From positions 4,606,509-4,670,508 of the forward strand of contig OY763324.1 of NCBI GenBank assembly GCA_963667365.1: a DNA stretch of 64,000 bases. The letters are read 5' to 3'. Source of the DNA: Candidatus Poribacteria bacterium. Lineage in GTDB: Bacteria > Poribacteria > WGA-4E > WGA-3G. Of this stretch, positions 4,988 to 50,021 are shown one piece after another. Both the position numbers and the translations under genes were made by a program. The notes under the pieces were generated by a model. The model was not told where the DNA came from. It worked only from the letters and a program-made list of their open reading frames with translations, and did no database searches. Numbering within the stretch: the stretch's first letter is position 1; each line of letters starts with the position of its first letter.

Positions 4988-5130
4988 TTGACTTACGATA
5001 ATTAACATGCTATAATATATCGTAAATAAAATTAACTTGACTTATCAATATTAGCATGCTATAATATATCATAAATAAAATTAACTTGACTTATCAATAT
5101 TAATATAGTATAATAACAAATAGTATAATA
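4988..5130 (+). promoter_or_regulatory. Three tandem 49-bp repeats, each a near-consensus sigma70 promoter (TTGACT-17 bp-TATAAT), plus a fourth -10-like tagtataat
   Basis: -35/-10 pairs at 4988-4993/5011-5016, 5037-5042/5060-5065 and 5086-5091/5109-5114. All point toward the gene at 5160. Confidence 0.7.
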
Positions 5131-5159
5131 ACAAACATCAAAAGGAACAATAAAATCAA

Positions 5160-5807: not shown

Positions 5808-5810
5808 AAA

Positions 5811-8100: not shown

Positions 8101-8252
8101 TAGGGTTATATAATGCGACAACAAACCGAAATAAATGACATCTGATGATTTCAAGGGATTTGTGATATAACTATTAGAAAGACAATAATTTGATTTGTAC
8201 CTAAGTATGTTGTTTAGACGTTAAAACTGTAGAGTAATCTACCAAAATTGGT

Positions 8253-10211: not shown

Positions 10212-10237
10212 TAAGTGTTACGTGTCTATTGAATTCT

Positions 10238-11098: not shown

Positions 11099-11258
11099 AA
11101 AGATGAATAATACATGTCATTATTATATCAAACAAAATGTAAAGTCAAGATAAGCACTGACAGAAAACTATAAAAGCATCCGAACAAAGGTTTGTAAAAT
11201 CTGTATGTTTATGTTACTATATTATGTATAGAAATTCAACTATTGAAAAGGCTTATAG

Positions 11259-12050: not shown

Positions 12051-12076
12051 GAGTTCATTCCTACAATTTGCCAACC

Positions 12077-34860: not shown

Positions 34861-35190
34861 TCGTTACCGTAATGGATAGATTTTTGTCTTAGATTTACCG
34901 TGAGTTAGGTATAAGCAACTTTGGGAATCGGTAAATATGCACTGCAAAATGACTTTGTTATAGTGCCTGTTAAATCTTGTAAAGTTTTGAGTCAATCCTG
35001 ATAAAATTAGTCATAAATAGCCTATAAACCCAATGGTGATAAGGGATTGTAGCAAATTCCCAAATTCCTACAATTCCGATTGACTCAAAAAACTCAAAAG
35101 TATGACATTGTAAATTCGGCAAATAAATATGAAATCCTGCATGTCTGCTAAACCGAACTCACGTTAAATATAGTGATTCCACAATTAATT

Positions 35191-35220
35191 TTGACAAGAC
35201 CTACTTTATTATAGTATAAT
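35191..35220 (+). promoter_or_regulatory. Candidate sigma70 promoter of the rplM-rpsI operon (TTGACA-18-TATAAT)
   Basis: TTGACA at 35191-35196, TATAAT at 35215-35220, about 55 bp upstream of rplM. Confidence 0.45.
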
Positions 35221-35275
35221 ACATTAATGCATTTGAGTATATAACTAATGGAAATGTCAACATTTACCAAAAAGG

Positions 35276-35722
35276 TTGAGAATTATGGTATTAAAAACAA
35301 AAACCTATTTCCCTAAATCCGAAAAACAGATTAAGTGGTACATCGTAGATGCAGATGGACAGGTGCTCGGACGATTAGCATCCCGTATTGCACAAGTACT
35401 GAGAGGAAAACACGACCCGAGTTTTACACCTCACGCGGATTTAGGTTATCGTGTTGCTGTGATTAACGCTGAAAAGGTCGTTGTCACTGGTAATAAGGCA
35501 GAGCAAAAAACTTATTTCCGACATAGCGGTTATCCTGGTGGTGATAGGTATCGAACTTACAATGAACAGATGGAACGCAATCCAGAATATATTATTACAT
35601 CTGCTGTCAAAGGGATGGTTCCAAAAAATAGTCTCGGTGCTAAATTAATGAACGGTTTAAAAGTATACACTGGAACGAACCACCCTCACCAGGCACAAGA
35701 ACCGGAAGTCTTAACATTTTAA
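35276..35722 (+). CDS. rplM: 50S ribosomal protein L13
   Basis: ...KWYIVDADGQVLGRLASRIAQVLRGKHDPSFTPH...VINAEKV. Confidence 0.95.
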   Translation: MRIMVLKTKTYFPKSEKQIKWYIVDADGQVLGRLASRIAQVLRGKHDPSFTPHADLGYRVAVINAEKVVVTGNKAEQKTYFRHSGYPGGDRYRTYNEQMERNPEYIITSAVKGMVPKNSLGAKLMNGLKVYTGTNHPHQAQEPEVLTF

Positions 35723-35737
35723 CAGTTGAGGAAATAT

Positions 35738-36133
35738 ATGGCTATAGAACAATTTTGGGGAACAGGAAGACGTAAAACATCAGTAGCGCGCGTCCGAATT
35801 ATTCCAGGGGGTGAAGGCGATATCATCGTCAACAAGAAACCTATTGAGGATTATTTTGATCGTTCTGACCACGTACAGGAAGCGCGACGTCCGATTGAAC
35901 ACGTTGAACGGTCTGGTGAATTTGCTATCCATGTGAATGTCCGTGGTGGTGGTAATACCGGTCAAGCGGGTGCAATCTCACACGGTCTCGCACGAGCACT
36001 CGTCAAAGCAGATGAATCGCTAAAGCCTACTTTGAAAAAGGGCGGATTTTTAACACGTGACTCGCGTATGGTAGAACGCAAAAAATACGGACAAAAAGGT
36101 GCACGGGCACGGTTCCAATTCTCCAAACGGTAA
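35738..36133 (+). CDS. rpsI: 30S ribosomal protein S9 (tool ORF from 35726; ATG at 35738 with a GAGG RBS)
   Basis: ...GTGRRKTSVARVRI...GGGNTGQAGAISHGLARAL...KKYGQKGARARFQFSKR. Confidence 0.95.
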   Translation: MAIEQFWGTGRRKTSVARVRIIPGGEGDIIVNKKPIEDYFDRSDHVQEARRPIEHVERSGEFAIHVNVRGGGNTGQAGAISHGLARALVKADESLKPTLKKGGFLTRDSRMVERKKYGQKGARARFQFSKR

Positions 36134-36186
36134 TCTTTTCTTGCGTCCAGTCCAATTGACGCTACTTTGTGGTAATTCTGTATTAA

Positions 36187-37476
<1,290 letters not shown>

Positions 37477-37584
37477 GTGTATTGACCCAAACATCCCTCC
37501 ATCACATTTTTCATTCATTCAATAATTTTGCAATTTAACTTGACATTTGTCAAAAAACGTTGTATCATAATATTTTGTGATTTT

Positions 37585-37657
37585 GAGCCGTTAGCTCAGC
37601 AGGTAGAGCATCTGACTTTTAATCAGGTGGTCACAGGTTCGATTCCTGTACGGCTCA
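37585..37657 (+). tRNA. tRNA-Lys (anticodon TTT)
   Basis: Cloverleaf: acceptor gagccgt/acggctc, anticodon loop cTTTTaa, T-arm GGTTCGATTCC. CCA not encoded. Confidence 0.85.
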
Positions 37658-37668
37658 CCTTAATATGC

Positions 37669-37743
37669 GCCCCCGTCGTCTAGCCTGGCCAAGGACACCG
37701 CCCTTTCACGGCGGCGACACGAGTTCAAATCTCGTCGGGGGTA
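37669..37743 (+). tRNA. tRNA-Glu (anticodon TTC)
   Basis: gcccccgTCGTCTAGCCTGGCCAAGGACACCGCCCTTTCACGGCGG...GAGTTCAAATCTCGTcgggggtA, close to E. coli tRNA-Glu. Confidence 0.85.
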
Positions 37744-37752
37744 TTTTTCATG

Positions 37753-37795
37753 AAGAGACCCAACCCATCTGCTGTGGGTTGGGTCTCTTGTTTAT
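37753..37795 (+). terminator. Rho-independent terminator after the tRNA pair
   Basis: 15-bp perfect stem aagagacccaaccca / tgggttgggtctctt, loop tctgctg, then a T-rich tract. Confidence 0.7.
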
Positions 37796-37852
37796 CAATA
37801 AACACTTATACTTAAACAATTACTATTGATTCATTGGCAGTATCGGTAAGTC

Positions 37853-38311
37853 TCAATCCGCAGCCTCTGCCAGTTCCAATAATATTGGGGACTCAACACG
37901 AATAGCGTCTTTGATGCAAACTTCCTCACATAGTAGACAACCTACACACTCTGTCGGTTTCACCAGTTCGCAGATACCAAAGAAACTATCAGCGTGTTCC
38001 TTTGTTGCAGGGTCTGTTATTTCAAGACATTCCCATGGACAGATTTGTACACAGAAATCACATCCAGAGCATAGTTCCTCATAAATTACAGCGATGGGTC
38101 TATGTTTAGGACGTGGGATAAACTTACACACTTTACCGAATTGGTCTCGGATAGCTTCCACAGGACATACCATCCCGCATGCACTACAATCAATACATAC
38201 ACCCGGGTCTATGATGTGTAATTTATTTCGATCACCAGTAATCGCGTCAACCGGACAGTTATCTAAACACTGTACACACCCGATACATTCATCAGTGATG
38301 TAATATGCCAT
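37853..38311 (-). CDS. Iron-sulfur protein with four CxxCxxCxxxCP [4Fe-4S] motifs
   Basis: CIGCVQCLDNCP, CIDCSACGMVCP, CSGCDFCVQICP, CVGCLLCEEVCI. Confidence 0.8.
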   Translation of the reverse strand: MAYYITDECIGCVQCLDNCPVDAITGDRNKLHIIDPGVCIDCSACGMVCPVEAIRDQFGKVCKFIPRPKHRPIAVIYEELCSGCDFCVQICPWECLEITDPATKEHADSFFGICELVKPTECVGCLLCEEVCIKDAIRVESPILLELAEAAD

Positions 38312-38335
38312 TTTAGTTCCCTCAATTTGATTTAT

Positions 38336-40744
38336 TTATGATAATCCAAGATGTGTCGCAACCTGTTCGTCCAATTTCGCAGCCCATTCTTCAGGTGAAT
38401 GCACCTTTCCATATCGTGACATCACAATCTTTCCCTGTTTATCAATTAACACGAATGCAGGAACTTTCTGCCATGGATTTATACCAAATAGCTTGAAAAG
38501 TGGACCGTTGTAATCATCACCATCAAGTATATGTTGTCCTTTGCAGTTTTCTTCATGGATACGATCTCTTAATTCATCGTTTGATCCACCATAAATGCAA
38601 ATACTGATAATATCAAATCCTCTTGTATGATATTTATCATATATTGTATAAATATTCGATTGTAATTCACCCGAGGAACAAAAATATAGCAGTACAACAT
38701 TTCCTCGCTGTGTTTCAGGACAAACATGCTCTCCATATACATCAACAGCTGAGAAATCAGGAACCATGCTACCTACCCGTGATGTTTCCGTCCAACTCAC
38801 GATTTGTCCTAATCTATCTTGTCTATTGTCAACAGAAATTATTTTACCTTCTCGGTCAATGAGCCACTGAGAAGGAACAGAGTTTATACCAAAATACTTT
38901 GCAACCTTAGTTTTCCAGACTTCTCCATCAAAGATGTGGGACCACGGAATTTCATGTTCCTCAATATATTCACGTAGTTCTGCTTCGTTTTCATCCAGGC
39001 TTACACCGATGACTTCAAATCCGGTCTTGTGATGGGTCTCGTATACTTTTTTGACATACGGTATTTCTGGTGTGCAGAAACGACACCATTTAGAACAGAA
39101 ATTGAGAAGTACCATTTTCCCTTGATAGTCTGAGAACGATATCGGTTTACCCTCAAGTGTCACAGCGGTAAAGTCAGGTAGTTGTCGTCCAACCCATGCT
39201 GTTTGTGCCCATCTGTATTCAGAGTGGGGTTCCCATGGGTATTTTTGTGCTAATTCGGTTTCCCCCAAAGTTTCATAAATATCACCGAGTCCGCGTAATG
39301 CGTACCATTCGTCAGGTTCGTGTGTCAGCCGTTCCTGAAATACCTGTAACATCTGAACTATCAAAGTTTTACACTTACCTATCAATTCAGAGTTACCATC
39401 AGGATTTTTCATAAGATACCGATAGATGTGGCACGGAGTTCTGCCTAATTCATTATATAGTCTTGTTAACCAGTGATGCAAATCAGATTCGTCTGGATGT
39501 TGTGCCCTTCGATACAATTCTTCAAGTGCTAATAACGTCTTTTCATATAATGGGTCATCACGATTATATAAACTTTTGGCATACAGACTAATTGTGTGAT
39601 AGCAAACTTCTGCATCGTTAGATAACAATTCCATTGCTTGTTCAAGGTATGGAACATCACTGTCTCCTACAATGATTGACAACACCTTCGCTGCTGCACC
39701 GTTGTTCGGCATCTTTTCATACACATCTTCAGTGAATTCTTGGAGTTCCAACAGCATTGCTTGGGGTAACCGCGGAACGTACTCAGCGAGTTCCGATGGT
39801 AATGTTGTACGTCCGTCAATAACTCCATCTTCAAGTTTCATTTTAAAATACTTCAGAAGTTGTTCTTGAATTTTCTGAGTAAGTCTCCATCTGCGGTCTG
39901 AAAGTCCATGGTTTTCAAGAGAATCGAGAAAAGTATCCCAAAAATTAGGGTTTTCGTGTGATAGATCGTCTGTTTTCAATTGGGATTCTGATTCTTGATG
40001 TAATTCTTTTTGAAATGCTGCTTGTTCCTCTATAAGCAAGTCTATACATTTCTTAACCAAGACATTACTTTTCTCTATTTTTCTTTGACACATCTTAAAT
40101 AGAGTTGGATTTTCTGCATCTACCTTGAGTTCCTTAATAATTTCCTTGAGTTTAGCATATACAGCATAAGGCGTTTTCAATCCTTCATAGGCAATCTTAG
40201 CATCCTGATACCGAACGGTTGCCCCCTCTTGTTTTGCCCACGTGTATAGGTTTTCGAGTGAAGTTAGGACTCTTTCTTGCCAGTCTATATCCGATTCATA
40301 AATAACATAACAACATCGGTATCTGTCTATTACAAGTAAATTCATTCCTGGATCTTCAGGTACCAACCGCATACCGTTTTCAATATGCGATAGATATTGA
40401 GAGTCACCTTCCGCACATGCAACAATTGCTAAAATAATTGCCGCAGCACCGTTATTAGGATCTGTTTTTAAAAAACTTTCTGCTAACACTCTTAGTTTTG
40501 GCAACATCTCTTTTTGAAATCGCCAAAAGTAATCGTGCAACCCAGGTGGAAGTGCAGTTTGTCCATCCGTGACACCTACTTCAATCTTTTCTTTAAGGTA
40601 GGTAAGGAGATTTTCCTGCATCTCCTCATCCAACTCTAATTCACCAGTACCTGCAGAAAACCCGAAGTTGCGGAGAGAGTTCAAGAAAGTATACCAGAAA
40701 TCTGTGGAATCAAATTTCTCTATCATATTTGTTTTCCTATTCAC
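38336..40744 (-). CDS. Large cytoplasmic protein, paralog A: duplicated novel N-terminal module plus two thioredoxin-fold (TlpA/redoxin-like) domains
   Basis: Repeated module KFDSTDFWYTFLNSL...LELDEEMQENLL / NPNFWDTFLDSLENHG. Redoxin domain with WCRFC (CxxC). Second redoxin-like domain has a single Cys. Confidence 0.5.
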   Translation of the reverse strand: MNRKTNMIEKFDSTDFWYTFLNSLRNFGFSAGTGELELDEEMQENLLTYLKEKIEVGVTDGQTALPPGLHDYFWRFQKEMLPKLRVLAESFLKTDPNNGAAAIILAIVACAEGDSQYLSHIENGMRLVPEDPGMNLLVIDRYRCCYVIYESDIDWQERVLTSLENLYTWAKQEGATVRYQDAKIAYEGLKTPYAVYAKLKEIIKELKVDAENPTLFKMCQRKIEKSNVLVKKCIDLLIEEQAAFQKELHQESESQLKTDDLSHENPNFWDTFLDSLENHGLSDRRWRLTQKIQEQLLKYFKMKLEDGVIDGRTTLPSELAEYVPRLPQAMLLELQEFTEDVYEKMPNNGAAAKVLSIIVGDSDVPYLEQAMELLSNDAEVCYHTISLYAKSLYNRDDPLYEKTLLALEELYRRAQHPDESDLHHWLTRLYNELGRTPCHIYRYLMKNPDGNSELIGKCKTLIVQMLQVFQERLTHEPDEWYALRGLGDIYETLGETELAQKYPWEPHSEYRWAQTAWVGRQLPDFTAVTLEGKPISFSDYQGKMVLLNFCSKWCRFCTPEIPYVKKVYETHHKTGFEVIGVSLDENEAELREYIEEHEIPWSHIFDGEVWKTKVAKYFGINSVPSQWLIDREGKIISVDNRQDRLGQIVSWTETSRVGSMVPDFSAVDVYGEHVCPETQRGNVVLLYFCSSGELQSNIYTIYDKYHTRGFDIISICIYGGSNDELRDRIHEENCKGQHILDGDDYNGPLFKLFGINPWQKVPAFVLIDKQGKIVMSRYGKVHSPEEWAAKLDEQVATHLGLS

Positions 40745-40769
40745 TGTTTTGTGAAAGTATATGAATTAT

Positions 40770-43181
40770 CTATATGTGCGCTGACACAAGCTCATCTATC
40801 CTCACAGCCCACGCTTCAAGTGAATGTACCTTCTCATAACGTGCATCAATGACCTTACCATCAGCATCAATCAGAATGAAGGCAGGTAGTTTAACTTTTC
40901 GAAATCCTGAACTCGATCCAAATCCGGACTGCTCCACCAGAGAACATTGCAGTCCATCTTCATCAGCATAGACATAGTGTCCTTTATGGTTTTCTTTGCG
41001 TACTACTTTGTGCAAAGCTTCTTCGTCCCTCCAGCCACCAATATTGAAACCAATTACCTCAAATCCATTGTTGTGATGCTTCTTGTATAGTGTGTCAATG
41101 AGTGCGAGTTCAGGTTCACGATTTATGTAACCAAAATGGACTAAAACAACTTTTCCTCGAAATGCAGCTGCAGATATAGAATTGCCATCTATATCAACTG
41201 CAGTAAAATCGGGAATAACGTTGCCAATACGTGTAGTTTCTGTCCACTTCACAAGTTGTCCAAGATGTTCTCCTCTTGTATGAACAGAAAGAATCGTTCC
41301 ATCCCTGTCAATTAACCACTGTGAAGGAACTATGTAAATAGAGAAAAACTGTGCAAGTTCGCTTTTCCATCCTTTTCCATCAAATATGTGGTGCCACGGG
41401 ATCTCATGTTCCTCTATATATTCGCTTAGTTCCTTTTCGTTCTCATCCAAACTCACACCAATTACCTCTAATCCATTGTGGTGATGTTCCTCATATACCT
41501 GTTTGAGATACGGAATTTCTGAATCACAGAAACCACACCACTTCGCACAAAAATTTAGCACCAACATTTTACCACGGTAATCTGAAACAGATATAGGAGT
41601 GCCATCAATAGCAACCGTTGAAAAATTGGGAATTTGCTTTCCAACCCATGCTGCCTGATCCCATCTGTATTCAGGATGGGGTTCCCAAGGGTATTCTTGT
41701 GCTAATACAGTTTCACCTAATACTTCATAGACATCCCCAAGTCCGCGTAATGCATACCAATCGTCTGGTTCGACATTAAGTTGATGCTTAAATGCATGTT
41801 GCATTTGCTCAATCAAGGTTTGACACCTTTCAATCAGTTCTGCATTTGCTTCAGGATTTTTCATCAGATTCCGATATATATGGCATGGTGTTCTACCTAC
41901 GTTCCTATACAGTTTTGACATCCAACTTGTTAATTTCGCTTCATCTTTGTGCTCCGCTCTTTCAAACATTCTCTCAAGAGCAGTAAGTGTTAGTTTGAAC
42001 AATGGATCGTAATGTTTATCATAATGTCTAAGTGCATAAAAGCAGGTTTCAGCATCTTTGGGTGCCAACATCATAGATTGTTCAAGGAATATAAGGTCAC
42101 TATCCGAATTTACATTTCGGATACGTTTACCCTCCCATACTATGCTTGCTAATATTTTCATTGCAGCACCGTTTTTTGGTTGTGTTTCAAGCACCTCTTC
42201 AGCGAATTCACGGAGTTCCAAATGCATCACTTCTGGAAATTCTGAAATATGTTCATGAAGATCCGTTGGTAATATTGTTCTTCCGTCAACCACACCTGCT
42301 GCAATCGTAGCTTCAAGGTAATCAAGAAGTTGCTCTTGGTCCTTCTCAGTAAGTCTTCTTGGAGGTGCATTTTTACGATTTTCAAGCGATTTTAGAAATG
42401 CATCCCATATATCGGTATGATCAGATATTTCATCAACTAAATCTTGTTGGTCCTCCGATTGTTGTCCTGTATACTTCCGAAATGCAGCCTTCTCCATGGG
42501 AACCAAATCTCGACACTTCTTTATTAGGGAATTACATATCTCAATTTCCGTACTACTTTTATCAGAACCTGATGAATTTTGTAGGTCTCTGAGTCTGTCT
42601 TTGAGTTGTTTATAAACTGTATAAGGCGTAACTCTATGCTGCAAATAGAATGACCTAGCCTCCTGATAACGAGCAGTGTCCTCTTGTTGTTTAGCCCATG
42701 TATATAAGTTTTCAAGTGACCTAACAACTTTCTCGTGTCGCTCAAATTCAACGTTAAAATATTGACTTTTTCTGTATTTATCAATCACAACCAAATTCAT
42801 ACACGGATCATTCGGTACCAACGCCATTGACTCATCCACCTGTGGATCATTATTAGCATCCCAGTCTGAAATTTCTACAATTGTGCGAAGTAAGGATGCT
42901 GTGCCGTTTTGTGGATCAGATTGAAGAAAACTATCAGTTAATTCCCGTGTTTTTGGTAACATCTCTTTTGGAATCCGCCAATAGTAATTATGTAGTCCAG
43001 GAGGAAGTGCTGTTTCACCATTCGTAACATCTTCATCAATCTTTTCTTTGAGATAGGCAAGGAATTTATCCTGCATCTCCTCATCCATCTCCAATTCACC
43101 TATTCCATAAGAGAGTCCTTCGTTATATAGAGAGTTAATGAATGTATACCAGAATTCTGTTGAGTCATATTTATCAGCCAT
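40770..43181 (-). CDS. Paralog B of the 38336..40744 protein (803 aa, same architecture, CxxC = WCGFC)
   Basis: Collinear similarity over the full length (MADKYDSTEFWYTFINSL..., ...FCAKWCGFCDSEIPYLKQVYEEH...). Confidence 0.5.
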   Translation of the reverse strand: MADKYDSTEFWYTFINSLYNEGLSYGIGELEMDEEMQDKFLAYLKEKIDEDVTNGETALPPGLHNYYWRIPKEMLPKTRELTDSFLQSDPQNGTASLLRTIVEISDWDANNDPQVDESMALVPNDPCMNLVVIDKYRKSQYFNVEFERHEKVVRSLENLYTWAKQQEDTARYQEARSFYLQHRVTPYTVYKQLKDRLRDLQNSSGSDKSSTEIEICNSLIKKCRDLVPMEKAAFRKYTGQQSEDQQDLVDEISDHTDIWDAFLKSLENRKNAPPRRLTEKDQEQLLDYLEATIAAGVVDGRTILPTDLHEHISEFPEVMHLELREFAEEVLETQPKNGAAMKILASIVWEGKRIRNVNSDSDLIFLEQSMMLAPKDAETCFYALRHYDKHYDPLFKLTLTALERMFERAEHKDEAKLTSWMSKLYRNVGRTPCHIYRNLMKNPEANAELIERCQTLIEQMQHAFKHQLNVEPDDWYALRGLGDVYEVLGETVLAQEYPWEPHPEYRWDQAAWVGKQIPNFSTVAIDGTPISVSDYRGKMLVLNFCAKWCGFCDSEIPYLKQVYEEHHHNGLEVIGVSLDENEKELSEYIEEHEIPWHHIFDGKGWKSELAQFFSIYIVPSQWLIDRDGTILSVHTRGEHLGQLVKWTETTRIGNVIPDFTAVDIDGNSISAAAFRGKVVLVHFGYINREPELALIDTLYKKHHNNGFEVIGFNIGGWRDEEALHKVVRKENHKGHYVYADEDGLQCSLVEQSGFGSSSGFRKVKLPAFILIDADGKVIDARYEKVHSLEAWAVRIDELVSAHI

Positions 43182-43270
43182 TTTTTCTTTCCTTGAATTG
43201 TGTTAGAATAGTGAAGTACTCCAGATTTAAGTGAGAAAACAAAGGTTAACTGTGGTAGTTAATGAAAAAT

Positions 43271-43576
43271 TTATAGATGTTTTGTAAGTAGTTCTTCGAG
43301 TTTCGCACACCAAGATTCTCGTGAGTGTATCTGTCCGTATCGAGACATTAATACTTTTCCATCTTTACCTATCAGCACAAATGCTGGATGAAAACGACCA
43401 AATCCAATGCCAAATTGCTGTGCCAACGGACCATCCCAGCCATCACCATCAAAGAGGACTTTGTCCTGCATCTCTTCGTCCATCTCCAATTTACCTCTGC
43501 CCGATGCGAGTCCAAAGTTATTAAGTGAGTTTAGAAACTTGTACCAGAAATCTGTAGAATCGTATTTGTCTCTCAT
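43271..43576 (-). pseudogene. Internally deleted third copy of the paralog family (N-terminal 40 aa fused to C-terminal 60 aa)
   Basis: MRDKYDSTDFWYKFLNSLNNFGLASGRGKLEMDEEMQDK matches paralog N-termini. ...FHPAFVLIGKDGKVLMSRYGQIHSRESWCAKLEELLTKHL matches their C-termini. Confidence 0.6.
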
Positions 43577-43610
43577 AATGTACTCCGCGGCGTGTATTGT
43601 TTAGATAAAA

Positions 43611-44342
43611 CTAAATAATATTTCCATTTTTGTCCACATAGACGACTTCCCATCCCTCAGGTTCTATCCCATTGTTTTGAAGGTCAGCTTTCTGTTCTTC
43701 AGAAAGTTTCGGTTCAGAGTTCCGATTCTTGCTCGATTTAATCTCGTACTCGGAGTCAATTTTGCATACGTACATTCTCCCTGGGACAGAGGGAAGCGCA
43801 TTTTCACCAATCACTGTCCAGTCTTCTATTTCGGGATTGTCGCGCCTTGCTTCTTGGATTAGTTGATATTGACTAATCTCCTTATCAATGTATACTGATT
43901 GTTCAAATTCATCTGCATCATGGTCTACAAGGTACTCATTTGAAAACACATTAATGCGTATGTCAAGATATTCCTCATAATCCTTGTAATCTTCTATACT
44001 CACACCTTTATCAAGTAGCATTTGAATCCATTCGTGGCGTGGGTATTTGGCATCTACATCTCCCAATGTATATTCAATGATGCGTTTATTTCCAGTGTGT
44101 TTGTCAGTCTTAAAGGAAAAATATTCTGGTTTTGAGATTTCTATTTCACAATATTCCTGAAATGAAATGGTTTTGTCAATGAACATCTTTTTAGTTAACT
44201 CAACACGTGGATGTTTAGTAGATTCATCTAATGTCCTAACTTCTGCAGAAGAAGTTGGCTTAGAGTTAGGTTTTTGAGAATTGTATTCTGTATCATACGC
44301 TTCCATTAGAGATTCAACGGTTTGGATTCTGGTATTTTGCAT
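43611..44342 (-). CDS. Hypothetical acidic protein
   Basis: ORF only. No recognisable motif. Confidence 0.3.
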   Translation of the reverse strand: MQNTRIQTVESLMEAYDTEYNSQKPNSKPTSSAEVRTLDESTKHPRVELTKKMFIDKTISFQEYCEIEISKPEYFSFKTDKHTGNKRIIEYTLGDVDAKYPRHEWIQMLLDKGVSIEDYKDYEEYLDIRINVFSNEYLVDHDADEFEQSVYIDKEISQYQLIQEARRDNPEIEDWTVIGENALPSVPGRMYVCKIDSEYEIKSSKNRNSEPKLSEEQKADLQNNGIEPEGWEVVYVDKNGNII

Positions 44343-45117
44343 GGTCTTTCTCCTGTGTGATATATTTATCTTGTGTAAGTCGGGAGAATAAGTAGAACCC
44401 TATTTACACAATATTTTTCCTCAAACTACATGACACTTATAATTTTCAAATCATCAAAAGCTTGTCCATCTTGGTCAGTGATACGTAAAATATATGTCGA
44501 TGCACCTTCCTCATTACATATCTTAACGAGGATACTATTTTTATCTGCTTTAAGGAGCACAGGAATAGTGTATTTATCAAGTTTTGCTGCATAGGTTTTG
44601 GTATGTGAGAATACCTCTTTACCATTTAACCATATTTTCCCTTGGTCATCACTATCAAATAAGGGTACGTCGGATGAGTTCAGAATCGTTGTGTTTCATT
44701 TTGCACCTCTTGGAGCAGATGGTTTCATAATTTGTGACGCGTTTTAGAGCAGAATTGGGTGCATATTTTTCAACAATCTTAGGAATTACATCATCTTGCT
44801 ATGAATTTCTTTGAGGAAAAGTATAATAGTTTTATAATATTTAGAGGCGATCTAAAATAAAGGACTCTCTTAGAAGTGTTGCAAACTTAGTATTGGACTG
44901 GATTTATGAGGTATTGATGATATAGGCAAGAATTACTGACTCTAAAGTTTTTGGTGTGACAGTCTAAACTGAGATTCTGATAAATGCAAGGGTATTGTCT
45001 AACGATTGAATTGCACAGTTCTTGGATTTAAAACTTGTGCATGAAGCAGTGTATACTCCAGTAATCGTTAGGCAACACCCTAAGTATGTTGACTGGTTGG
45101 TAGTCAACCAGTGCTAT

Positions 45118-45381
45118 TTACTCAAAATAATCAGCATTAATTTCTATGAAATGTTCCCATTCTTCAGGTACATCTTCTTCCATGAAGATAGCCTCAACGG
45201 GACATTCCGGTTCACACACACCACAATCAATGCATTCTTCTGGATCAATGTAGAGCATTTCTACTTCTTCAAAGTCGTCTGGCGCATCTGTTGGGTGCGG
45301 GTGAATGCAATCTACAGGACACACATCAACACAAGAACTGTCTTTTTCGTCAATGCAAGGTTCGCAAATTACATATGTCAT
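45118..45381 (-). CDS. fdxA: 7Fe-type (FdxA-like, [3Fe-4S][4Fe-4S]) ferredoxin, copy 1
   Basis: MTYVICEPCIDEKDSSCVDVCPVDCIHP...DPEECIDCGVCEPECPVEAIF. Confidence 0.85.
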   Translation of the reverse strand: MTYVICEPCIDEKDSSCVDVCPVDCIHPHPTDAPDDFEEVEMLYIDPEECIDCGVCEPECPVEAIFMEEDVPEEWEHFIEINADYFE

Positions 45382-45421
45382 GGTAATACTCCTTTCATTT
45401 GTTTATTCAATAGTAATAAAT

Positions 45422-45700
45422 TTAAACACTGGGTTGTTCATTGAAAAAATCAGCGTTAATTTGTATGTAATGCTCCCATTCTACGGGAACATCTTCTTCA
45501 AAATAAATAGCCTCAACGGGACATTCGGGTTCACATACGCCACATTCAATACATGTTTCAGGATCAATGAAAAGTTGATTTACACCTTCATAATCATTGG
45601 ATTCATCACTCGGATTTGGTCGTATGGAATCACATGGGCAAATATCAACACAGACACTGTCTTTTACATCAACACAAGGCTCACAAATTACATAAGTCAT
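45422..45700 (-). CDS. fdxA: 7Fe-type ferredoxin, copy 2
   Basis: MTYVICEPCVDVKDSVCVDICPCDSIRP...CIECGVCEPECPVEAIY. Confidence 0.85.
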   Translation of the reverse strand: MTYVICEPCVDVKDSVCVDICPCDSIRPNPSDESNDYEGVNQLFIDPETCIECGVCEPECPVEAIYFEEDVPVEWEHYIQINADFFNEQPSV

Positions 45701-45755
45701 TTCTTTATCTACCTTTTATTATATCCATTTTTTCTAATTTGTCAATTATTGTTTT

Positions 45756-46019
45756 TTATTCGAAATATTCTGCATTTATTTCTATGAAGTGTTCCCATTC
45801 ATCTGGGACATCATCATCCAAGAATATGGCTTCAACGGGACATACCGGAACGCATGCAGCACAGTCTATACATTCTTCAGGGTCAATATAGAGCATTTCC
45901 ACTTCTTCAAATTCATCTGGGTCTACATCCTGCATTGGGTGAATACATTCCACTGGACATATATCCACACAAGCACTGTCTTTTATATCAATACATGGTT
46001 CGCAAATTACATAGGTCAT
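45756..46019 (-). CDS. fdxA: 7Fe-type ferredoxin, copy 3
   Basis: MTYVICEPCIDIKDSACVDICPVECIHP...CIDCAACVPVCPVEAIF. Confidence 0.85.
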   Translation of the reverse strand: MTYVICEPCIDIKDSACVDICPVECIHPMQDVDPDEFEEVEMLYIDPEECIDCAACVPVCPVEAIFLDDDVPDEWEHFIEINAEYFE

Positions 46020-46120
46020 TGTTTTACTCCATAATGCCTGTTTCGTATCATTGGATTATCAGTAGTTATTGACACTGCAGTTGTATATGTAGTGTGACTG
46101 CTAACTATATAAAACCGTCT

Positions 46121-46864
46121 TCAAATAATCGGCAGGGCAGTATTCACTTGAGCAGATTTCCAGTGAATCTTTGGGTTTGGCACGTCATCTGAATAACTAT
46201 ATCCGCCTTGGACATAGCGTATACCTACCATAATCTCTAATCGATATGTTAATTCCTTCGCCTCAGCGATATCTATTTCGTCGTCTTGATTTTTATTTAG
46301 ATCAAAACCCTGATGGATTAATTTCACTTGTAATCCATGTCCAATTAATGAATCTGATAAGAGTTTTGCCAATAATTCAGCATCCGAAAACGATAGTTCG
46401 TCACCATCTTCCTTATTCCGCAAACTAAAACCGTTATGCCTAACTGAAACGTTTAATCCTTCGTTTTTAACCAATGATTCCAGTAATGTCATATCCTCAT
46501 CATGGTAAACAATACCTTCATTTGCAATAATCTTTAATGTATAGCCGCGATCAATAACATTCAAAGGTAGTGTCCGTTCAGCGATTAGTGATTTTAATAT
46601 ATCTCTTATTTCAGGTGTGCGATGTGTTTCTAAAGCGAGACAGTTTATCGCATCCTCCATAATTGGTGCAGTTCTCCCGACAGAAATAGAATGGCTCTTG
46701 CCACATCCGTTCATCCACTGCTTTATTACCTTCTTCATGGCTTCTTGTGTTTCTCTAAAAGCATTGTCACTAACCAATTGTGGACCTCTGTTGGAAGCAT
46801 TTATAGGTAGTTTGTGTTCCTCAATTAAAGTGTCAAGTAATTCTTTTACATCATTCGGTGTCAT
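46121..46864 (-). CDS. Repeat protein (4 x about 55-aa L..LI.E..L...GF.L modules), paralog 1; candidate soluble anti-sigma or partner of the ECF sigma
   Basis: Internal repeats. Paralogous to 46923..47663. Co-oriented immediately downstream of the ECF sigma. Confidence 0.3.
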   Translation of the reverse strand: MTPNDVKELLDTLIEEHKLPINASNRGPQLVSDNAFRETQEAMKKVIKQWMNGCGKSHSISVGRTAPIMEDAINCLALETHRTPEIRDILKSLIAERTLPLNVIDRGYTLKIIANEGIVYHDEDMTLLESLVKNEGLNVSVRHNGFSLRNKEDGDELSFSDAELLAKLLSDSLIGHGLQVKLIHQGFDLNKNQDDEIDIAEAKELTYRLEIMVGIRYVQGGYSYSDDVPNPKIHWKSAQVNTALPII

Positions 46865-46922
46865 GTTTCATCCTCCTTCTATATGAGAAACGGATCTGAT
46901 CTACTGTTCAATAGTCTACAAT

Positions 46923-47663
46923 TCACCTTCTTGGAAACCGCCACAGAGAGATACATATACTGGCACTTTTTAATGCAGTTTCGGATTCTTCATCATCGGA
47001 ATGTAAGTAATTGTACGAATTTAGCACATAGTTGATACCTAAGGTATCATCTATCTTTTTTGCAATCTCTTTTATCTGTGCAAGGTGCATGTCCCCATCC
47101 TGCGTTTTCTCTAAGCTGAAACCACGATGAAACATTTTCGCCTTTATATGCTTTTCTCTTAGTGTTGTTTCAAGACTATCTGTTACCCTTTTTAATTGGG
47201 AAGATGGCACCTCAACTTCTGATGGTTTCTCTAACCTAAAACCACCGTGTAATATTTTTACAGGATAGCGCGTTGAATCATCTTCTGCTAAGGTAATCAA
47301 TCTAAAACCTTGATCGGTGAAACGGATCGCCATATTCTGTTCCGTTATGATAGATTTAATAAGTGCTTCAACATCTATAGATTCCAACAATTCTATTACA
47401 GCCGACTCAACATTTGATTTGGTGTAGAATTCCATAATATCTGATCGAACAGGTGAACGAGAATGTATGTTTCCATCTGTGTTCCATTGATGAATCACAT
47501 CTTTGATGCGTGATTCCATAACGGTATCCAATGATCGAAAATTCTGGTTGGGTGCTATATCAACAACTTCAATCGGAAGTCCCTTCTCTATAATCAAGGT
47601 CTTTAGCAACTCCTTGACATCATTCGGTGTCATCTGTGTTCTCCTTTTAATGTTAGAATGCAT
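46923..47663 (-). CDS. Repeat protein paralog 2
   Basis: MTPNDVKELLKTLIIEKGLPIEV... shared N-terminus and module structure with 46121..46864. Confidence 0.3.
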   Translation of the reverse strand: MHSNIKRRTQMTPNDVKELLKTLIIEKGLPIEVVDIAPNQNFRSLDTVMESRIKDVIHQWNTDGNIHSRSPVRSDIMEFYTKSNVESAVIELLESIDVEALIKSIITEQNMAIRFTDQGFRLITLAEDDSTRYPVKILHGGFRLEKPSEVEVPSSQLKRVTDSLETTLREKHIKAKMFHRGFSLEKTQDGDMHLAQIKEIAKKIDDTLGINYVLNSYNYLHSDDEESETALKSASICISLWRFPRR

Positions 47664-47688
47664 ATCAATTGAAAAGGTTACATAATTA

Positions 47689-48339
47689 TTAGTTCTTGCT
47701 AGAATTTCCCATTTTTTTTGTATTATCTTGTTTCATAAATATGTTGTCGAATTCACCGGGATATTCAGCCTTCATCCATGCAAGAACCTTTTTCTTAGCA
47801 CGATGCAATCGAACTTTAGTCGCTGACAATGATATTTTTAGCGTGTCGGCTATTTTTTCCAACTTCATTTTAGGATTTGCAAGTTTCTGTTCAAATACTT
47901 GCTGTTCAGAAATAGGTAACCGTTGTGCCAGAGCATAAACGATCTCCATCTGTTCTTTCGCTATGATGCGATAAATAGGGGAACGATGTTCAAGATCTAC
48001 CAAATATGCCTCTGGATTTCCTTCGAGTGATCCTATTTCGAGTTTTCTCTGATCTTCTCGGAAGTATGCAGCAATGAGTTGATGCGCTATACTGAAAAGC
48101 CAACTGGAAAAACTCTTGGGATTCCGTAGAGTACTGAGATTTTGATGAACCTTAATAAATGTCTCTTGAACAAGATCTTGTGCGGTTTCCCAATTTCCAA
48201 CACGTCGATAGAAAAAACTGAGGAGTGGACCTTCGTACCGGTGATACAGAATCTCAAATGTCCCATCATCAGTGACATCTATATTTTGATTAATCAATTC
48301 CTCATCACGAAACTCATCCATTAGAAACACCTTTATCAA
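47689..48339 (-). CDS. ECF-type RNA polymerase sigma factor (sigma-70 regions 2 and 4)
   Basis: ...AQDLVQETFIKVHQNL (region 2) and ...LEKIADTLKISLSATKVRLHRAKKKV (region 4 HTH). Confidence 0.8.
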   Translation of the reverse strand: MIKVFLMDEFRDEELINQNIDVTDDGTFEILYHRYEGPLLSFFYRRVGNWETAQDLVQETFIKVHQNLSTLRNPKSFSSWLFSIAHQLIAAYFREDQRKLEIGSLEGNPEAYLVDLEHRSPIYRIIAKEQMEIVYALAQRLPISEQQVFEQKLANPKMKLEKIADTLKISLSATKVRLHRAKKKVLAWMKAEYPGEFDNIFMKQDNTKKMGNSSKN

Positions 48340-48738
48340 TTGATTGGATATAGGTAACTACCTTTTCCTGGAGGTCTTGTGCAACCTCCTGTTTACCGTT
48401 TTCATCCCGTCAACTCCTAATAAGAAAGTCATTCCATACATCCATACCGTGGTCTTTCATCCTATTTTTTCCTATATTATGTTTGCAATTCATCGGTATA
48501 TGTTTAGTATTGTTCATTTGAAATTAGTTTAAAAGGTAAGAATGTGTATCAATGAAAAAGGTTACATAAAAGATATGCTCAGGTTGGGAAGTGTGTCTGA
48601 ATGGAAATTCTTTTTATGCACATTATGTAGTATTTCAAGGACATTAGCAAGTTTTCTGAAGAAAAGCGATTACTATGATAACTAAAAATTAGAAAAGTGT
48701 AATAAGATAATTTCTAAAAATTTGGAGAAATATAATCC

Positions 48739-49296
48739 ATGCTCAAGAATTTAGTAAAGATAACCTGTGTGTTTGCGTTATTGGTATGTTTTGTCGGATG
48801 CGGCGATGTTGATAAGTACCAGGTGTCACCTATAGATTATTCTGCAATTAATAGTGTTCTAAAACGTTGGCGCGAAGGCTATGAAACAGAAGATGTAGAG
48901 ACCTATATGAGTGCATACTGGTCACAAGGTTTTCGGTACGTTTCAGATATGGGGACAGACGGTGATAAAACTGATGATGTAGTGTTTGATGATATACGTA
49001 TCGAACGGGATTCAGCAACCTATGTTTTTAGTAGATATCAGGATATTGAAATTGAACTTTCAATACCACCAGAAATAAAATTATATAACGATGGAACTCA
49101 TGCCGAAGTACGAAATCACTACCGTATCCAAGGTTTTGTGGCAGATGGCGAAGCACTTGAAGGTGGTTACACAGGTTGGTTTGCAGAAGGTGACAACCTG
49201 TTTATCTTTGAAAAAAGAGACGAAATATGGCGTATCGTCGAATGGCATGACGAAGCTTTCAATGATGATGAAATCCGCGCTGCTAATAATCTATAG
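48739..49296 (+). CDS. Lipoprotein, NTF2/SnoaL-like fold (paralog 1)
   Basis: Lipobox LLVCFVGCG. ...VLKRWREGYETEDVETYMSAYWSQGF. Confidence 0.4.
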   Translation: MLKNLVKITCVFALLVCFVGCGDVDKYQVSPIDYSAINSVLKRWREGYETEDVETYMSAYWSQGFRYVSDMGTDGDKTDDVVFDDIRIERDSATYVFSRYQDIEIELSIPPEIKLYNDGTHAEVRNHYRIQGFVADGEALEGGYTGWFAEGDNLFIFEKRDEIWRIVEWHDEAFNDDEIRAANNL

Positions 49297-49406
49297 TTTA
49301 TTATAGTTTGGACAACTTTTTACATCCATGATAAAATGTTCAAACTATATATAACTATTACTGCCTTCCTGGTTTATGAAATAACAGCGTTGGAGGGAAC
49401 ATCAAT

Positions 49407-50021
49407 ATGTTCCAAATATTTATAAAGATATTCGGATTTATTACATTATTGACTTTTTTTGTTGCTTGTAGTGTTGAACTTGATATGGTGGATGAAAAAC
49501 CGGTTGAAGTGCAACAAGTGCCACCTGAGGATATTTTGGGTATCAACGATGTCTTAAAACGGTGGCAAGAAGGATTTGAAATTGGGGATATTGATACCTA
49601 TATTGACACATATTGGTCAGAAGGTTTCCGATACGTTTCAGATATGGGGACAGAAGGGGATAAAACTGATGATCTTGAATTTGATGATATAAGAGAAGAA
49701 CGCGATTCAGCAACTAAAGTGTTTAGCCAATTTCAAGATATAAAGATAGAACTCACTATGCCACCGGTTATCACAATAAATGATGAATATACTCAAGCCG
49801 AAGTGCGAAATCACTACCAAATTCAAGGGTATGTTGCAGATGGCGAAGCTTTTGAAGGTGAATATACAGGATGGTTCGCAGAAGGTGATAACGTGTATAT
49901 GTTTGAAAAACGAGATGGAGAATGGCGTATCACAGAATGGCATGACGAAGCCTTACATGCAGAAGAAATTCAGATTGAAAATAATCAGTTGTTGCCTATA
50001 GTTTGGTCGACTTTAAAGTAG
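49407..50021 (+). CDS. Lipoprotein, NTF2/SnoaL-like fold (paralog 2)
   Basis: Lipobox FFVACS. Strong similarity to 48739..49296 (...YRIQGFVADGEALEGGYTGWFAEGDN... versus ...YQIQGYVADGEAFEGEYTGWFAEGDN). Confidence 0.4.
   Translation: MFQIFIKIFGFITLLTFFVACSVELDMVDEKPVEVQQVPPEDILGINDVLKRWQEGFEIGDIDTYIDTYWSEGFRYVSDMGTEGDKTDDLEFDDIREERDSATKVFSQFQDIKIELTMPPVITINDEYTQAEVRNHYQIQGYVADGEAFEGEYTGWFAEGDNVYMFEKRDGEWRITEWHDEALHAEEIQIENNQLLPIVWSTLK

Follow-up and report, generated by a model that had tools for sequence, protein, structure and literature searches.

Paired TPR-like and thioredoxin-fold proteins of Candidatus Poribacteria, their putative redox role, and the remnant of a third copy

Poribacteria are uncultivated, widespread sponge symbionts in which sensing and gene regulation are almost unknown, and we found no literature specific to Poribacteria and thioredoxin or sigma factors. 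One locus in a Candidatus Poribacteria genome raises two questions: what do two adjacent genes for redoxin-domain proteins of about 800 aa do, and how did the 101-aa gene beside them arise? We examined this locus within a stretch of 64,000 nucleotides of contig OY763324.1 (assembly GCA_963667365.1), hereafter the window. The three open reading frames that an earlier note had described, A, B, and C, are present on the minus strand, and A and B are, as proposed there, collinear paralogs (51% identity over the full length, E = 0). The frame of A reaches a GTG at 40744, which gives 802 aa, and residue numbers follow this frame; the most probable start codon is the ATG at 40726 (M7), which agrees with all homologues. 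A database entry of 796 aa (P0001) is 100% identical to gene A.

Domain architecture of genes A and B

The two genes and their domains lie as follows.

38336 to 40726, minus strand: gene A, 796 aa from the ATG at 40726; head plus TPR-like hairpins, twice, then a thioredoxin fold with CxxC and a thioredoxin fold without cysteines
39980 to 40726, minus strand: N-module repeat 1 of A, residues 7 to 255 of the 802-aa frame
39215 to 39961, minus strand: N-module repeat 2 of A, residues 262 to 510, with the invariant Cys381 and Cys438
38795 to 39202, minus strand: first thioredoxin fold of A (Trx1, ResA/TlpA-like), active site WCRFCTPE at 39074 to 39085, cis-Pro motif VPS
38348 to 38791, minus strand: second thioredoxin fold of A (Trx2), without conserved cysteines, cis-Pro kept
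40770 to 43181, minus strand: gene B, 803 aa, architecture as in gene A
42432 to 43181, minus strand: N-module repeat 1 of B
41667 to 42422, minus strand: N-module repeat 2 of B
41247 to 41654, minus strand: Trx1 of B, CxxC motif WCGFC at 41526 to 41537
40773 to 41243, minus strand: Trx2 of B

Each protein contains two domains of the redoxin/AhpC-TSA/Thioredoxin_8 type (Pfam matches with E values of 1e-19 to 1e-32), and the CxxC motif is found in the first only, in agreement with the initial description (A, WCRFC, residues 554 to 557; B, WCGFC, residues 549 to 552). Trx1 and Trx2 share 35% identity in A and 28% in B. Across family members from 50+ loci, the CxxC was kept in 72 of 74 open reading frames; among aligned homologues C557 and E560 are invariant, and C554, W553, and the VPS cis-Pro motif are nearly so. 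The best PDB sequence and fold matches of Trx1 were ResA, TlpA, and tryparedoxin (E = 3e-24; TM score, 0.80 to 0.85; rmsd, 1.6 to 2.1 Å), with Foldseek giving TM scores of 0.80 to 0.85 to ResA and to 4grf. Trx1 thus combines the CxxC site and cis-Pro loop that mark the fold of TlpA/ResA-like thiol-disulfide oxidoreductases. NCBIfam models for the named subfamilies scored below their cut-offs, at 108.9 and 113.3 bits versus 170 for ResA (NF002854), 48 to 64 versus 230 for TlpA (NF047696), 43 to 46 versus 123 for DsbE (TIGR00385), and 20 to 38 versus 140 to 374 for the peroxiredoxin models. The peroxiredoxin motif PxxxT/SxxC (AhpC/TSA, BCP/PrxQ) is absent, the active site reading NFC(A/S)KWCxFC. 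Trx2 is presumably redox-inactive, as judged from its sequence.

The region before the thioredoxin folds is a module repeated twice, as had been noticed: residues 12 to 248 of A align with residues 264 to 475 (31% identity, E = 1e-26), and the two copies in B align at 24% identity (E = 1e-15). Each module opens with a conserved head of ~70 aa, formed by two helices, a beta-hairpin, and a helix, and is predicted to continue in TPR-like helical hairpins; its invariant cysteines are C233, C381, and C438. The AF2 model of the N-module is all-helical (pLDDT 88, pTM 0.80), and a Foldseek search of the PDB with it returned only TPR superhelices (CTR9, SPINDLY, Ski3, OGT), as weak matches (E = 3e-5 to 1e-3; TM score, 0.2 to 0.25). 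The PDB sequence search with the family profile matched thioredoxin domains only and gave no match for the N-module. Pfam TPR models stayed below the gathering score in A (TPR_17, 22.4 versus 24.4 bits; TPR_19, 16.8 versus 25) and had no match in B. Two distant relatives, P0132 and P0139, which are detectably related in sequence to N-repeat 2 plus Trx1, carry significant Pfam TPR matches beside a redoxin domain. The N-module is predicted to be a TPR-like alpha-solenoid with a conserved head. The earlier description of the module as novel therefore probably does not hold for its fold: given the AlphaFold model, the Foldseek relatives, and the Pfam TPR domains in distant relatives, the fold is probably a common one, and only the sequence family is restricted to the lineage. 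The model of full-length A (pLDDT 88.5, pTM 0.82) suggests a defined arrangement of the domains relative to one another.

In accordance with the earlier note, neither A nor B has a signal peptide; no 19-mer reaches transmembrane level (maximum Kyte-Doolittle value, 1.35 in A and 1.11 in B). Signal peptides and membrane anchors are likewise absent from more than 100 full-length homologues, and the N termini, MxxKYDSTDFWY, are acidic in 40/40 of the homologues inspected residue by residue. Because transmembrane segments and signal peptides are absent, and because fusions to sigma factor domains (described below) have no transmembrane segment, the family proteins are probably cytoplasmic. One relative of the short form of the family (P0123) has a signal-peptide-like N terminus, so some members may be exported. 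The WD40 proteins encoded nearby are predicted to be extracytoplasmic.

All of the genome loci at which the family was found (52/52) belong to Poribacteria, and a sequence search against 1.84 billion representatives gave 25 matches at E ≤ 1e-3, which suggests that the family sequence is essentially confined to Candidatus Poribacteria. The proposal that the array is evolutionarily dynamic was confirmed: copy number ranges from one to four between genomes, and other species also have copies that are partial, frameshifted, or chimeric. Such evolution of a gene array is ordinary. A recent tandem duplication as the source of A and B was ruled out, both being old clades with orthologues in several species. 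Between strains, 12 synonymous and 8 nonsynonymous codon differences were counted in A, and 14 and 10 in B; both genes are apparently under purifying selection.

Origin of the 101-aa gene

43271 to 43576, minus strand: gene C, 101 aa, relic of a third paralog of the C type (WCGPC clade)

In gene C, the first 41 residues of the family run straight into its last 60, much as first reported. Residues 1 to 41 are 66 to 73% identical to the N termini of A and B, and residues 33 to 101 are 40 to 49% identical to their C termini. Both parts of C match, residue for residue, the two ends of a third full-length paralog (P0016; 795 aa, 56% identical to A), which is intact at positions 10001 to 12388 of locus L002 in a 99%-identical sister genome; 1 of the 101 aa differs. 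Mapped against L002, the deletion removed exactly 2,082 bp in frame (694 of the 795 codons, codons 42 to 735), with flanks that are collinear at ~99% identity, and the junction lies between 43454 and 43453 (...DKVL|FDGD...). C is thus an internally deleted family member, as the earlier note had supposed. Its proposed route, homologous recombination between copies, did not stand up, since both ends come from P0016 and the junction has 0 nt of homology; the lack of shared sequence also rules out a microhomology-mediated deletion.

Two accounts compete with a simple deletion: unequal homologous recombination between tandem copies, with removal of ~700 codons, or a repeat collapsed during assembly. 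Tandem paralogs lend themselves to such events, and chimeric copies of 1.2 kaa (P0002; L042 6295) indicate that recombination between copies or partial duplication does occur in the family. Both halves of C nonetheless derive from one gene, and an independent, ~2%-diverged assembly (LXNI01011954.1) carries the identical junction, so C is no assembly artefact; the refuting condition named in the earlier note thus fails, which speaks for its finding. We regard the recombination and artefact accounts as barely credible and, as far as sequence comparison reaches, refuted.

Gene C is the decaying remnant of an anciently diverged third paralog, left by a single in-frame 2,082-bp deletion; the A, B, and C types are all old clades. 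The deletion is common to two strains and absent from a third. The C frame is still open, with three synonymous and one nonsynonymous differences between the two carrier strains, too few for a test of selection.

Gene cluster, promoters, and sigma factors

The array is the distal part of a conserved cluster, all on one strand, with the order (short family member)-ECF sigma216-unk246-unk247-one to three FdxA-(ECF sigma-TM-WD40-unk243)-one to four family genes-polyferredoxin. In the window, the genes and promoter motifs around A, B, and C are as follows.

48540 to 48566, minus strand: P1a, ECF-type promoter motif upstream of sigma216, same motif as P1b
47689 to 48339, minus strand: sigma216, ECF-type sigma-70 family factor, head of the cluster
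47656 to 47682, minus strand: P1b, ECF-type promoter motif TGTAACCTTTT-N8-GATATGCATTC between sigma216 and unk246
46923 to 47663, minus strand: unk246, likely start M11 at 47633
46121 to 46864, minus strand: unk247
45756 to 46019, 45422 to 45700, and 45118 to 45381, minus strand: three tandem FdxA-like ferredoxin genes
44736 to 44764, minus strand: P2, ECF-type promoter motif ATGCACC-N17-CGCGTC
44655 to 44699, minus strand: sigma-WD40 stub, 14 codons (MKHNDSELIRRTLI*) of a 1,388-aa ECF-sigma + TM + WD40 gene
43611 to 44342, minus strand: unk243, conserved 243-aa protein
37853 to 38311, minus strand: fer152, final cluster gene, a polyferredoxin that carries the CxxCxxCxxxC motif four times

The polyferredoxin gene follows the 3′ end of A after 24 bp, and in 21 of the loci examined it comes directly after the final family gene. 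Unk243 is encoded upstream of the first family gene in 14 of the loci, between that gene and sigma-WD40 where the latter is present. In about six species, a short family member opens the predicted sigma216 operon. Unk246 and unk247 are paralogs (31% identity) with no known domain in Pfam or NCBIfam; unk243 and unk246 have no relatives in Pfam, NCBIfam, or the PDB, and no anti-sigma candidate can therefore be named. Pfam and NCBIfam searches of A, B, unk243, unk246, and unk247 gave no match to an anti-sigma domain of the class I ASD or ZAS kind (zf-HC2, RskA, and the like; HxxxCxxC). The cluster contains no recognised ferredoxin:thioredoxin-reductase-like component, no ccm/res or cytochrome oxidase assembly genes, and no chaperone genes.

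The sigma-WD40 gene was also lost by deletion in the window's strain (~3.9 kb, L002 5025 to 8917; junction 44660|44659). At this locus the strains form a series with no deletion, one deletion, and two deletions, a record to the base pair of gene loss in progress in a symbiont.

The P1 motif gave 38 high-scoring matches in 1.15 Mb, 38/38 of them in the sense orientation. Sites lie upstream of sigma216, or of the short family member where it precedes sigma216, and between sigma216 and unk246; in L035, L037, L038, L040, and L053, P1 also precedes solitary family paralogs by ~115 bp. The position of P1a points to a presumed autoregulation of sigma216. P2 is conserved ~60 bp 5′ of every gene of the sigma-WD40 type, sigma-family fusions included. 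It is kept in the window, where the stub, unk243, C, B, A, and the polyferredoxin gene follow it; its presumed sigma factor is sigma-WD40, which the window's strain has lost. None of A, B, and C is preceded by its own P1 or P2 motif, and all three are predicted to rely on read-through from P2 or from P1b, ~4 kb upstream. The coding strand between 38311 and 48339 has one weak terminator-like hairpin only (5-bp stem, inside unk247), and terminator-like sites in this interval were not enriched over shuffles; a simple scan for sigma-70 promoters and terminators did no better than shuffles.

In at least two species, a sigma domain of the sigma-WD40 type continues in frame into a complete family protein (P0075, P0091, L029). 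The fused domain is a paralog of that of sigma-WD40 (64 to 69% identity); at 25% identity, sigma216 of the window was ruled out as its orthologue. Sigma domains of the sigma-WD40 type carry one invariant cysteine in sigma2 and one in sigma4 (18/18), and sigma216 has no cysteines at the positions of this pair. A, B, and C themselves stand alone, with no covalent fusion to sigma2-sigma4. The connection between the family and sigma factors is new, and three ECF surveys make no mention, in their main text, of a thioredoxin-fold extension.

Putative function and relation to known systems

From motifs, gene context, and structural models, we lean, by a modest degree, toward the family being putative protein thiol-disulfide oxidoreductases that are directed at clients and belong to a redox module under ECF sigma control. 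ECF sigma factors would control the family members, the helical solenoids would hold a protein client, and the presumably low-potential, ResA-like CxxC would swap disulfides with that client. The dead second thioredoxin fold may serve as a binding or structural domain, and the co-encoded ferredoxins may be part of the same redox circuit. If the proteins are merely stress-induced disulfide reductases, the outcome is a useful annotation upgrade and unsurprising.

A possible but unlikely alternative is that the family members are regulators, whose head/TPR module would bind an ECF sigma factor and set or sense its redox state, as an anti-sigma or activating partner; the fusions would then be the single-chain version, analogous to ECF42 with its TPR extension. 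The in-frame fusions with their retained P2 promoter, the short member at the head of the sigma216 operon, and the invariant cysteine pair are all consistent with this. So are parallels in other ECF groups. A review (PMC8999054) reports the same sigma2/sigma4 cysteine pair in WD40-extended ECF57 members, for which it suggests a sigma2-sigma4 link. The TPR extensions of ECF42 are required for activity of the sigma factor, and extensions are considered to make contact with its core domains (PMC7826278; PMC8999054). SigK is a precedent for a disulfide-regulated ECF. The copies per genome (up to four in tandem plus several solitary ones), however, look like diversified effectors more than dedicated partners, and the family is intact and apparently under purifying selection despite deletion of the adjacent sigma-WD40 gene. 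The head has no recognisable anti-sigma domain, sigma216 lacks the corresponding cysteines, and the fusions could be by-products of a deletion-prone locus.

We consider it distinctly unlikely that the proteins form a previously unrecognised class of sigma regulators in which TPR-scaffolded thioredoxin folds, fed by dedicated ferredoxins, change the redox state of the invariant sigma2-sigma4 cysteine pair in ECF57-like factors, by reduction or by oxidation, and the fusions represent the covalent complex. If true, the cellular redox state would be coupled directly to alternative sigma factor activity.

Highly doubtful, in our estimation, is a role as chaperedoxin-like holdases, functional analogues of CnoX/YbbN that would protect cytoplasmic proteins in oxidative or hypochlorite stress through mixed disulfides at the CxxC, with no turnover as a reductase. 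A thioredoxin fold joined to TPR-like repeats in a probably cytoplasmic protein, encoded in an ECF (stress) cluster, with a redox-dead second fold suited to binding, would fit such a role, and the present observations do not separate holdase from reductase activity. The domain order, on the other hand, is reversed, no sequence relationship to CnoX is detectable, the thioredoxin domain is of the ResA/TlpA type rather than the thioredoxin-1 type, and the cluster has no chaperone genes.

Very improbable, finally, is the reading that the proteins are peroxiredoxins, or else common reductases of the TlpA/ResA type that work outside the cytoplasm in maturing cytochrome c or copper centres. It is suggested by database names ("TlpA disulfide reductase family protein," "redoxin domain-containing protein," "peroxiredoxin/TPR repeat protein"), the strong Pfam AhpC-TSA and Redoxin matches, and the signal-peptide-like N terminus of one short-form relative, and opposed by the >100 homologues without signal peptide or anchor, the fusion to a cytoplasmic sigma domain, the scores below NCBIfam cut-offs, the WCxxC site in place of PxxxTxxC, and the lack of ccm/res or oxidase assembly genes.

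The locus supplies a lineage-specific family whose catalytic motif is clear and whose structure is modelled with confidence, and it connects thioredoxin-fold proteins and ferredoxins with cysteine-bearing ECF sigma factors in a way open to test. The P1 and P2 motifs, both sharply defined, could serve to map ECF regulons in Poribacteria genomes and metatranscriptomes.

Among known systems, the likeness to the ResA/TlpA/tryparedoxin type lies in the Trx1 fold (TM score to ResA and a Bacteroides TlpA-like protein as given above), the WCxxC site, and the cis-Pro loop; the position of Glu80 in ResA is matched by the family glutamate three residues after the second cysteine. The family differs in having no membrane anchor or signal peptide, in placing Trx1 inside an 800-aa protein, behind ~500 aa of helical repeats and before a cysteine-less thioredoxin fold, in reading WCGFC in most members where the ResA/TlpA type has WCxPC, and in lying among genes for ECF sigma factors and ferredoxins instead of cytochrome maturation genes. 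The chaperedoxin CnoX joins a thioredoxin fold to TPRs. With CnoX/YbbN and with generic TPR-plus-redoxin proteins such as P0132 and P0139, the family shares a thioredoxin fold and, by prediction, a protein-binding helical scaffold; it differs in its duplicated module, non-TPR head, added dead thioredoxin fold, and lineage specificity, and the relation to CnoX is one of analogy. The PDI-like a-b arrangement and nucleoredoxin have tandem thioredoxin folds, some of them redox-active, and resemble the family, by analogy alone, in a catalytic CxxC fold followed by a related cysteine-less one; the family proteins are bacterial and probably cytoplasmic. As in ECF42 with its TPR extension, other Poribacteria carry the whole family protein as a C-terminal extension of an ECF sigma domain, and the neighbouring sigma-WD40, deleted in the window, resembles ECF57, as described for that group, in its WD40 extension and sigma2/sigma4 cysteine pair. 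Unlike these extensions, A, B, and C of the window are stand-alone proteins.

Architecture and distribution of the tandem paralogs

The window, part of a 4.78-Mb Poribacteria contig, carries three tandem genes of a single Poribacteria protein family:

38336-43576, minus strand: open reading frames (ORFs) A (802 amino acids [aa]), B (803 aa), and C (101 aa)

As the earlier note had proposed, A and B are collinear paralogs, aligning end to end with 51% identity. The start of A is most likely the ATG at 40726, which would give a protein of 796 aa, as in all homologues. The twice-repeated N-terminal module described in that note was recovered in both proteins, the first ~250 residues being homologous to the next ~250 in A (31% identity, E = 1e-26) and in B (24% identity, E = 1e-15). 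The final ~290 residues form two related thioredoxin-fold domains (28 to 35% mutual identity), and the CxxC motif is restricted to the first (WCRFC, 554-557 in A; WCGFC, 549-552 in B), as that note had stated. No segment of A or B is sufficiently hydrophobic for a signal peptide, in line with the original reading, or for a membrane helix.

The first thioredoxin domain (Trx1) is ResA/TlpA/tryparedoxin-like both by sequence (E = 3e-24 to ResA in a PDB profile search) and by fold (TM score 0.80 to 0.85, rmsd about 1.6 to 2.1 Å). Its CxxC(xx)E motif is kept in 72 of the 74 family ORFs recovered from homologous loci; the active site is mostly WCGFC, with WCGPC in a clade that includes the parent of C, and its Trp is replaced by Ser or Gly in four ORFs. 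Across the homologue alignment, the second Cys never varies, nor does the Glu located three positions later (equivalent to ResA Glu80), and the cis-Pro motif VPS is almost invariant; the second domain (Trx2) retains the cis-Pro and lacks conserved cysteines throughout the family. The family scores far under the cutoffs of the NCBIfam ResA, TlpA, DsbE, and peroxiredoxin models and lacks the peroxiredoxin PxxxTxxC motif.

The N-module has no sequence match in Pfam, NCBIfam, or the PDB. An AlphaFold2 model built from a 107-sequence alignment was confident and all-helical (pLDDT 88, pTM 0.80), each repeat opening with a head built from two helices, a small beta-hairpin, and one short helix and continuing as a run of helical hairpins. 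Foldseek searches of the PDB returned only generic TPR superhelices with modest scores (CTR9, SPINDLY, Ski3, OGT, NatA, and IFIT), and more distant sequence relatives contain significant Pfam TPR matches. The module, which the earlier note had considered unknown, is therefore predicted to be a lineage-specific TPR-like solenoid rather than a new fold. Confidence was likewise high for the full-length model (pLDDT 88.5, pTM 0.82), which suggests that the four modules are held in a defined arrangement; no PDB entry combines all four.

A search of 5.8 billion proteins yielded more than 120 full-length relatives (47 to 70% identity, 765 to 824 aa), and every match in the minority with an organism name came from Candidatus Poribacteria. 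Scanning one genome per GTDB species gave 52 loci, 51 titled Poribacteria and one from an "uncultured bacterium" metagenome-assembled genome (MAG). With the 509-aa N-module as query, phmmer detected only 25 matches at E ≤ 1e-3 among 1.84 billion cluster representatives: members of the family, fragments, a "short" form having a single N-repeat plus the CxxC domain, and a few TPR-plus-redoxin proteins. Database sources give the family generic names only, and a literature search turned up no characterization of it. We conclude that the family combines known parts in a new arrangement specific to this lineage.

Two variants were observed among the homologous loci. A ~638-aa subfamily without Trx2 recurs (L015 8516, L020 5473, L028 12785, L029 4006, L044 10004, and L045 10010), so this domain is dispensable in some paralogs. 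Two genes are in-frame chimeras, in which a full copy (P0002, 1,256 aa) or the first ~650 residues (L042 6295-9918, 1,208 aa) are joined to a copy missing its first ~240 to 350 residues; one of the two sits in a chromosome-level assembly. These chimeras show partial duplication or unequal crossing-over within arrays.

Origin of gene C and a second deletion

Residues 1 to 41 of C match the family N terminus and residues 33 to 101 the C terminus, bearing out its description as a fusion of the two ends. In the homologue alignment, C equals, residue for residue, the first 41 plus the last 60 residues of P0016 (795 aa), the intact C-type paralog of a sister genome. The P0016 locus (L002, on a 4.51-Mb contig) shares ~99% DNA identity with window 35000-49500, and relative to it the window lacks exactly L002 10124-12205 (an in-frame loss of 2,082 bp, equal to 694 codons). 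This nucleotide-level comparison placed the junction between window positions 43454 and 43453, with zero shared nucleotides. Because the deletion lies within a third paralog that is only ~56% identical to A, it was intragenic and not an inter-copy crossover; the homologous recombination between copies first invoked for C is thus contradicted. In a neighbor-joining tree, A-, B-, and C-type genes form old clades with orthologues in several species.

The identical junction is present in an independent assembly (GCA_001752985.1, contig LXNI01011954.1, ~98% identical), which rules out an assembly artifact; its C ORF is 101 aa long with one substitution. The two carriers differ in C by three synonymous changes and one nonsynonymous change, too few to show maintenance, and the mini-ORF is most likely a relic. 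The tandem array with its deleted copy is ordinary genome evolution, now precisely documented.

Between the ferredoxin genes and unk243, an uncharacterized neighbor, L002 carries an intact 1,388-aa gene (4985-9151), here called sigma-WD40, whose product has an ECF sigma domain, one transmembrane (TM) helix, WD40 propellers, and a C-terminal region. The window is without 3,893 bp of this gene (L002 5025-8917). The remnant and the 15-mer found at both deletion sites are as follows:

44699-44655: sigma-WD40 stub of 14 codons, with its ECF-type promoter motif kept
44645-44659, minus strand: 15-mer TTTGATRGTGATGRC
43439-43453, minus strand: second copy of the same 15-mer

LXNI01011954.1 retains the 3' end of the sigma-WD40 gene, and the two deletions are therefore independent, giving three haplotypes. 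In both strain-specific deletions, the endpoint coincides exactly with the 5' edge of the 15-mer, which occurs twice in the window, at these two sites only (0.11 expected). An imperfect copy marks the deleted left edge in the larger deletion and not in the smaller. The 15-mer may mark a hot spot for breaks or stalling, or be Chi-like.

The ECF sigma-associated gene cluster

Family members recur in a same-strand order. Its upstream part is [short family member]-sigma216 (the cluster-head ECF sigma)-unk246-unk247 (one to four copies)-FdxA-like ferredoxin (one to three copies), and its downstream part is [sigma-TM-WD40-unk243]-family member (one to four copies)-fer152 (a polyferredoxin)-convergent purA. 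The window shows this gene order between 48339 and 37853, its gaps measuring 24 to 101 bp except at the deletion scar, and the coding strand of its cluster has a single weak terminator-like hairpin, inside unk247. Two promoter motifs are conserved:

48566-48540 and 47682-47656: P1, TGTAACCTTTT-N8-GATTTGCATTC
44764-44736: P2, ATGCACC-N17-CGCGTC, upstream of the sigma-WD40 stub

P1 precedes sigma216 or, where present, the short family gene ahead of it; it also lies in the short sigma216-unk246 spacer and, at a distance of ~115 bp, before solitary family paralogs in five other loci (L035, L037, L038, L040, and L053). Its 38 hits are all sense-oriented, and the rest of the 1.15 Mb scanned yielded none of comparable score. 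Every sigma-WD40-type gene, the window stub among them, has P2 ~60 bp upstream. Their -35/-10 layout, typical of autoregulated ECF promoters, suggests that both are ECF promoters, and P1 could serve to delimit the sigma216 regulon throughout Poribacteria.

Complete family members with an in-frame fusion to a sigma domain occur in two chromosome-level genomes and one MAG:

L001 10001-13009 (P0075), L029 559-3567, and P0091, other Poribacteria: sigma-family fusions of 1,002 aa

The fused sigma domain is 64 to 69% identical to that of sigma-WD40, and the fusions have no TM helix and have P2 in front of them. All 18 sigma-WD40-type sigma domains carry an invariant cysteine pair, with one residue in sigma2 and the other in sigma4.

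Several neighbors merit description. The three tandem FdxA-like (7Fe-type) ferredoxin genes at 45118-46019 encode 87 to 92 aa, are ~70 to 78% identical in DNA, and vary from one to three copies between species. Directly after the ECF sigma gene, 46121-47663 encodes the paralogs unk246 and unk247 (236 to 247 aa, 31% identity), a pair preceded by its own promoter-motif copy and found in one to four copies in other species. Neither matches Pfam or NCBIfam, and unk246 had only a chance-level match in the PDB (E = 0.57); they are candidates for an unrecognized sigma partner. The short family form (~440 aa; a single N-repeat, additional TPRs, and a WCGPC domain) opens the sigma216 operon in several species (L013 5319-6830, L045 461-1774, and equivalents in L017, L018, and L050) and is absent from the window; a relative, P0123, has a signal-peptide-like N terminus. 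Membrane-anchored WD40-repeat proteins without a sigma domain often precede solitary family paralogs (L030 7882-9939; similar in L025, L031, L036, L043, and L046), so the WD40 association reaches beyond the canonical cluster. Divergent from the sigma216 promoter region, 48739-50021 (plus strand) encodes two adjacent SnoaL-like/DUF4440 proteins; in some ECF groups, such domains are known to occur as partners or extensions. Elsewhere in the window, a 608-aa Mpa/ARC-like AAA ATPase with the proteasomal-ATPase OB domains Prot_ATP_ID_OB_N/C (28651-30477, minus strand) hints at a Pup-proteasome-type system in this genome.

Proposed function and relation to known ECF systems

On balance, we lean toward A and B being cytoplasmic, client-directed thiol-disulfide oxidoreductases. 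Produced under ECF control, they would act on protein clients held by the solenoids, with the dead Trx2 fold serving as an auxiliary binding domain; the cluster ferredoxins probably belong to the same redox circuit, and no enzyme coupling them to it was identified. This proposal is based on the strongly conserved ResA-like active site, the helical, predicted protein-binding scaffold, the absence of export signals, the conserved ECF-sigma and ferredoxin cluster, and the ECF-type promoter motifs before some paralogs. A and B are under purifying selection between strains.

The main rival is that family proteins regulate the sigma factors themselves, perhaps via the conserved cysteine pair. The sigma-family fusions speak for such a role, as does the position of the short form as first gene of the sigma216 operon; it nevertheless appears unlikely given that paralogs are numerous and that A and B have outlasted the adjacent sigma gene. 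A CnoX-like holdase role is more doubtful still, and it is highly improbable that the proteins are conventional periplasmic TlpA-type proteins or peroxiredoxins.

Conservation of the ECF-type promoters, fusion to sigma domains, and a sigma neighbor that bears cysteines together make the family a reasonable candidate for a new redox-to-sigma signaling link. The main text of the three ECF surveys consulted does not mention a thioredoxin-fold C-terminal extension. Among characterized systems, a review describes such a sigma2/sigma4 Cys pair for WD40-extended ECF57 and suggests that it links both domains (PMC8999054); TPR extensions are essential for ECF42 activity (PMC7826278), and SigK has a known redox-sensing disulfide.
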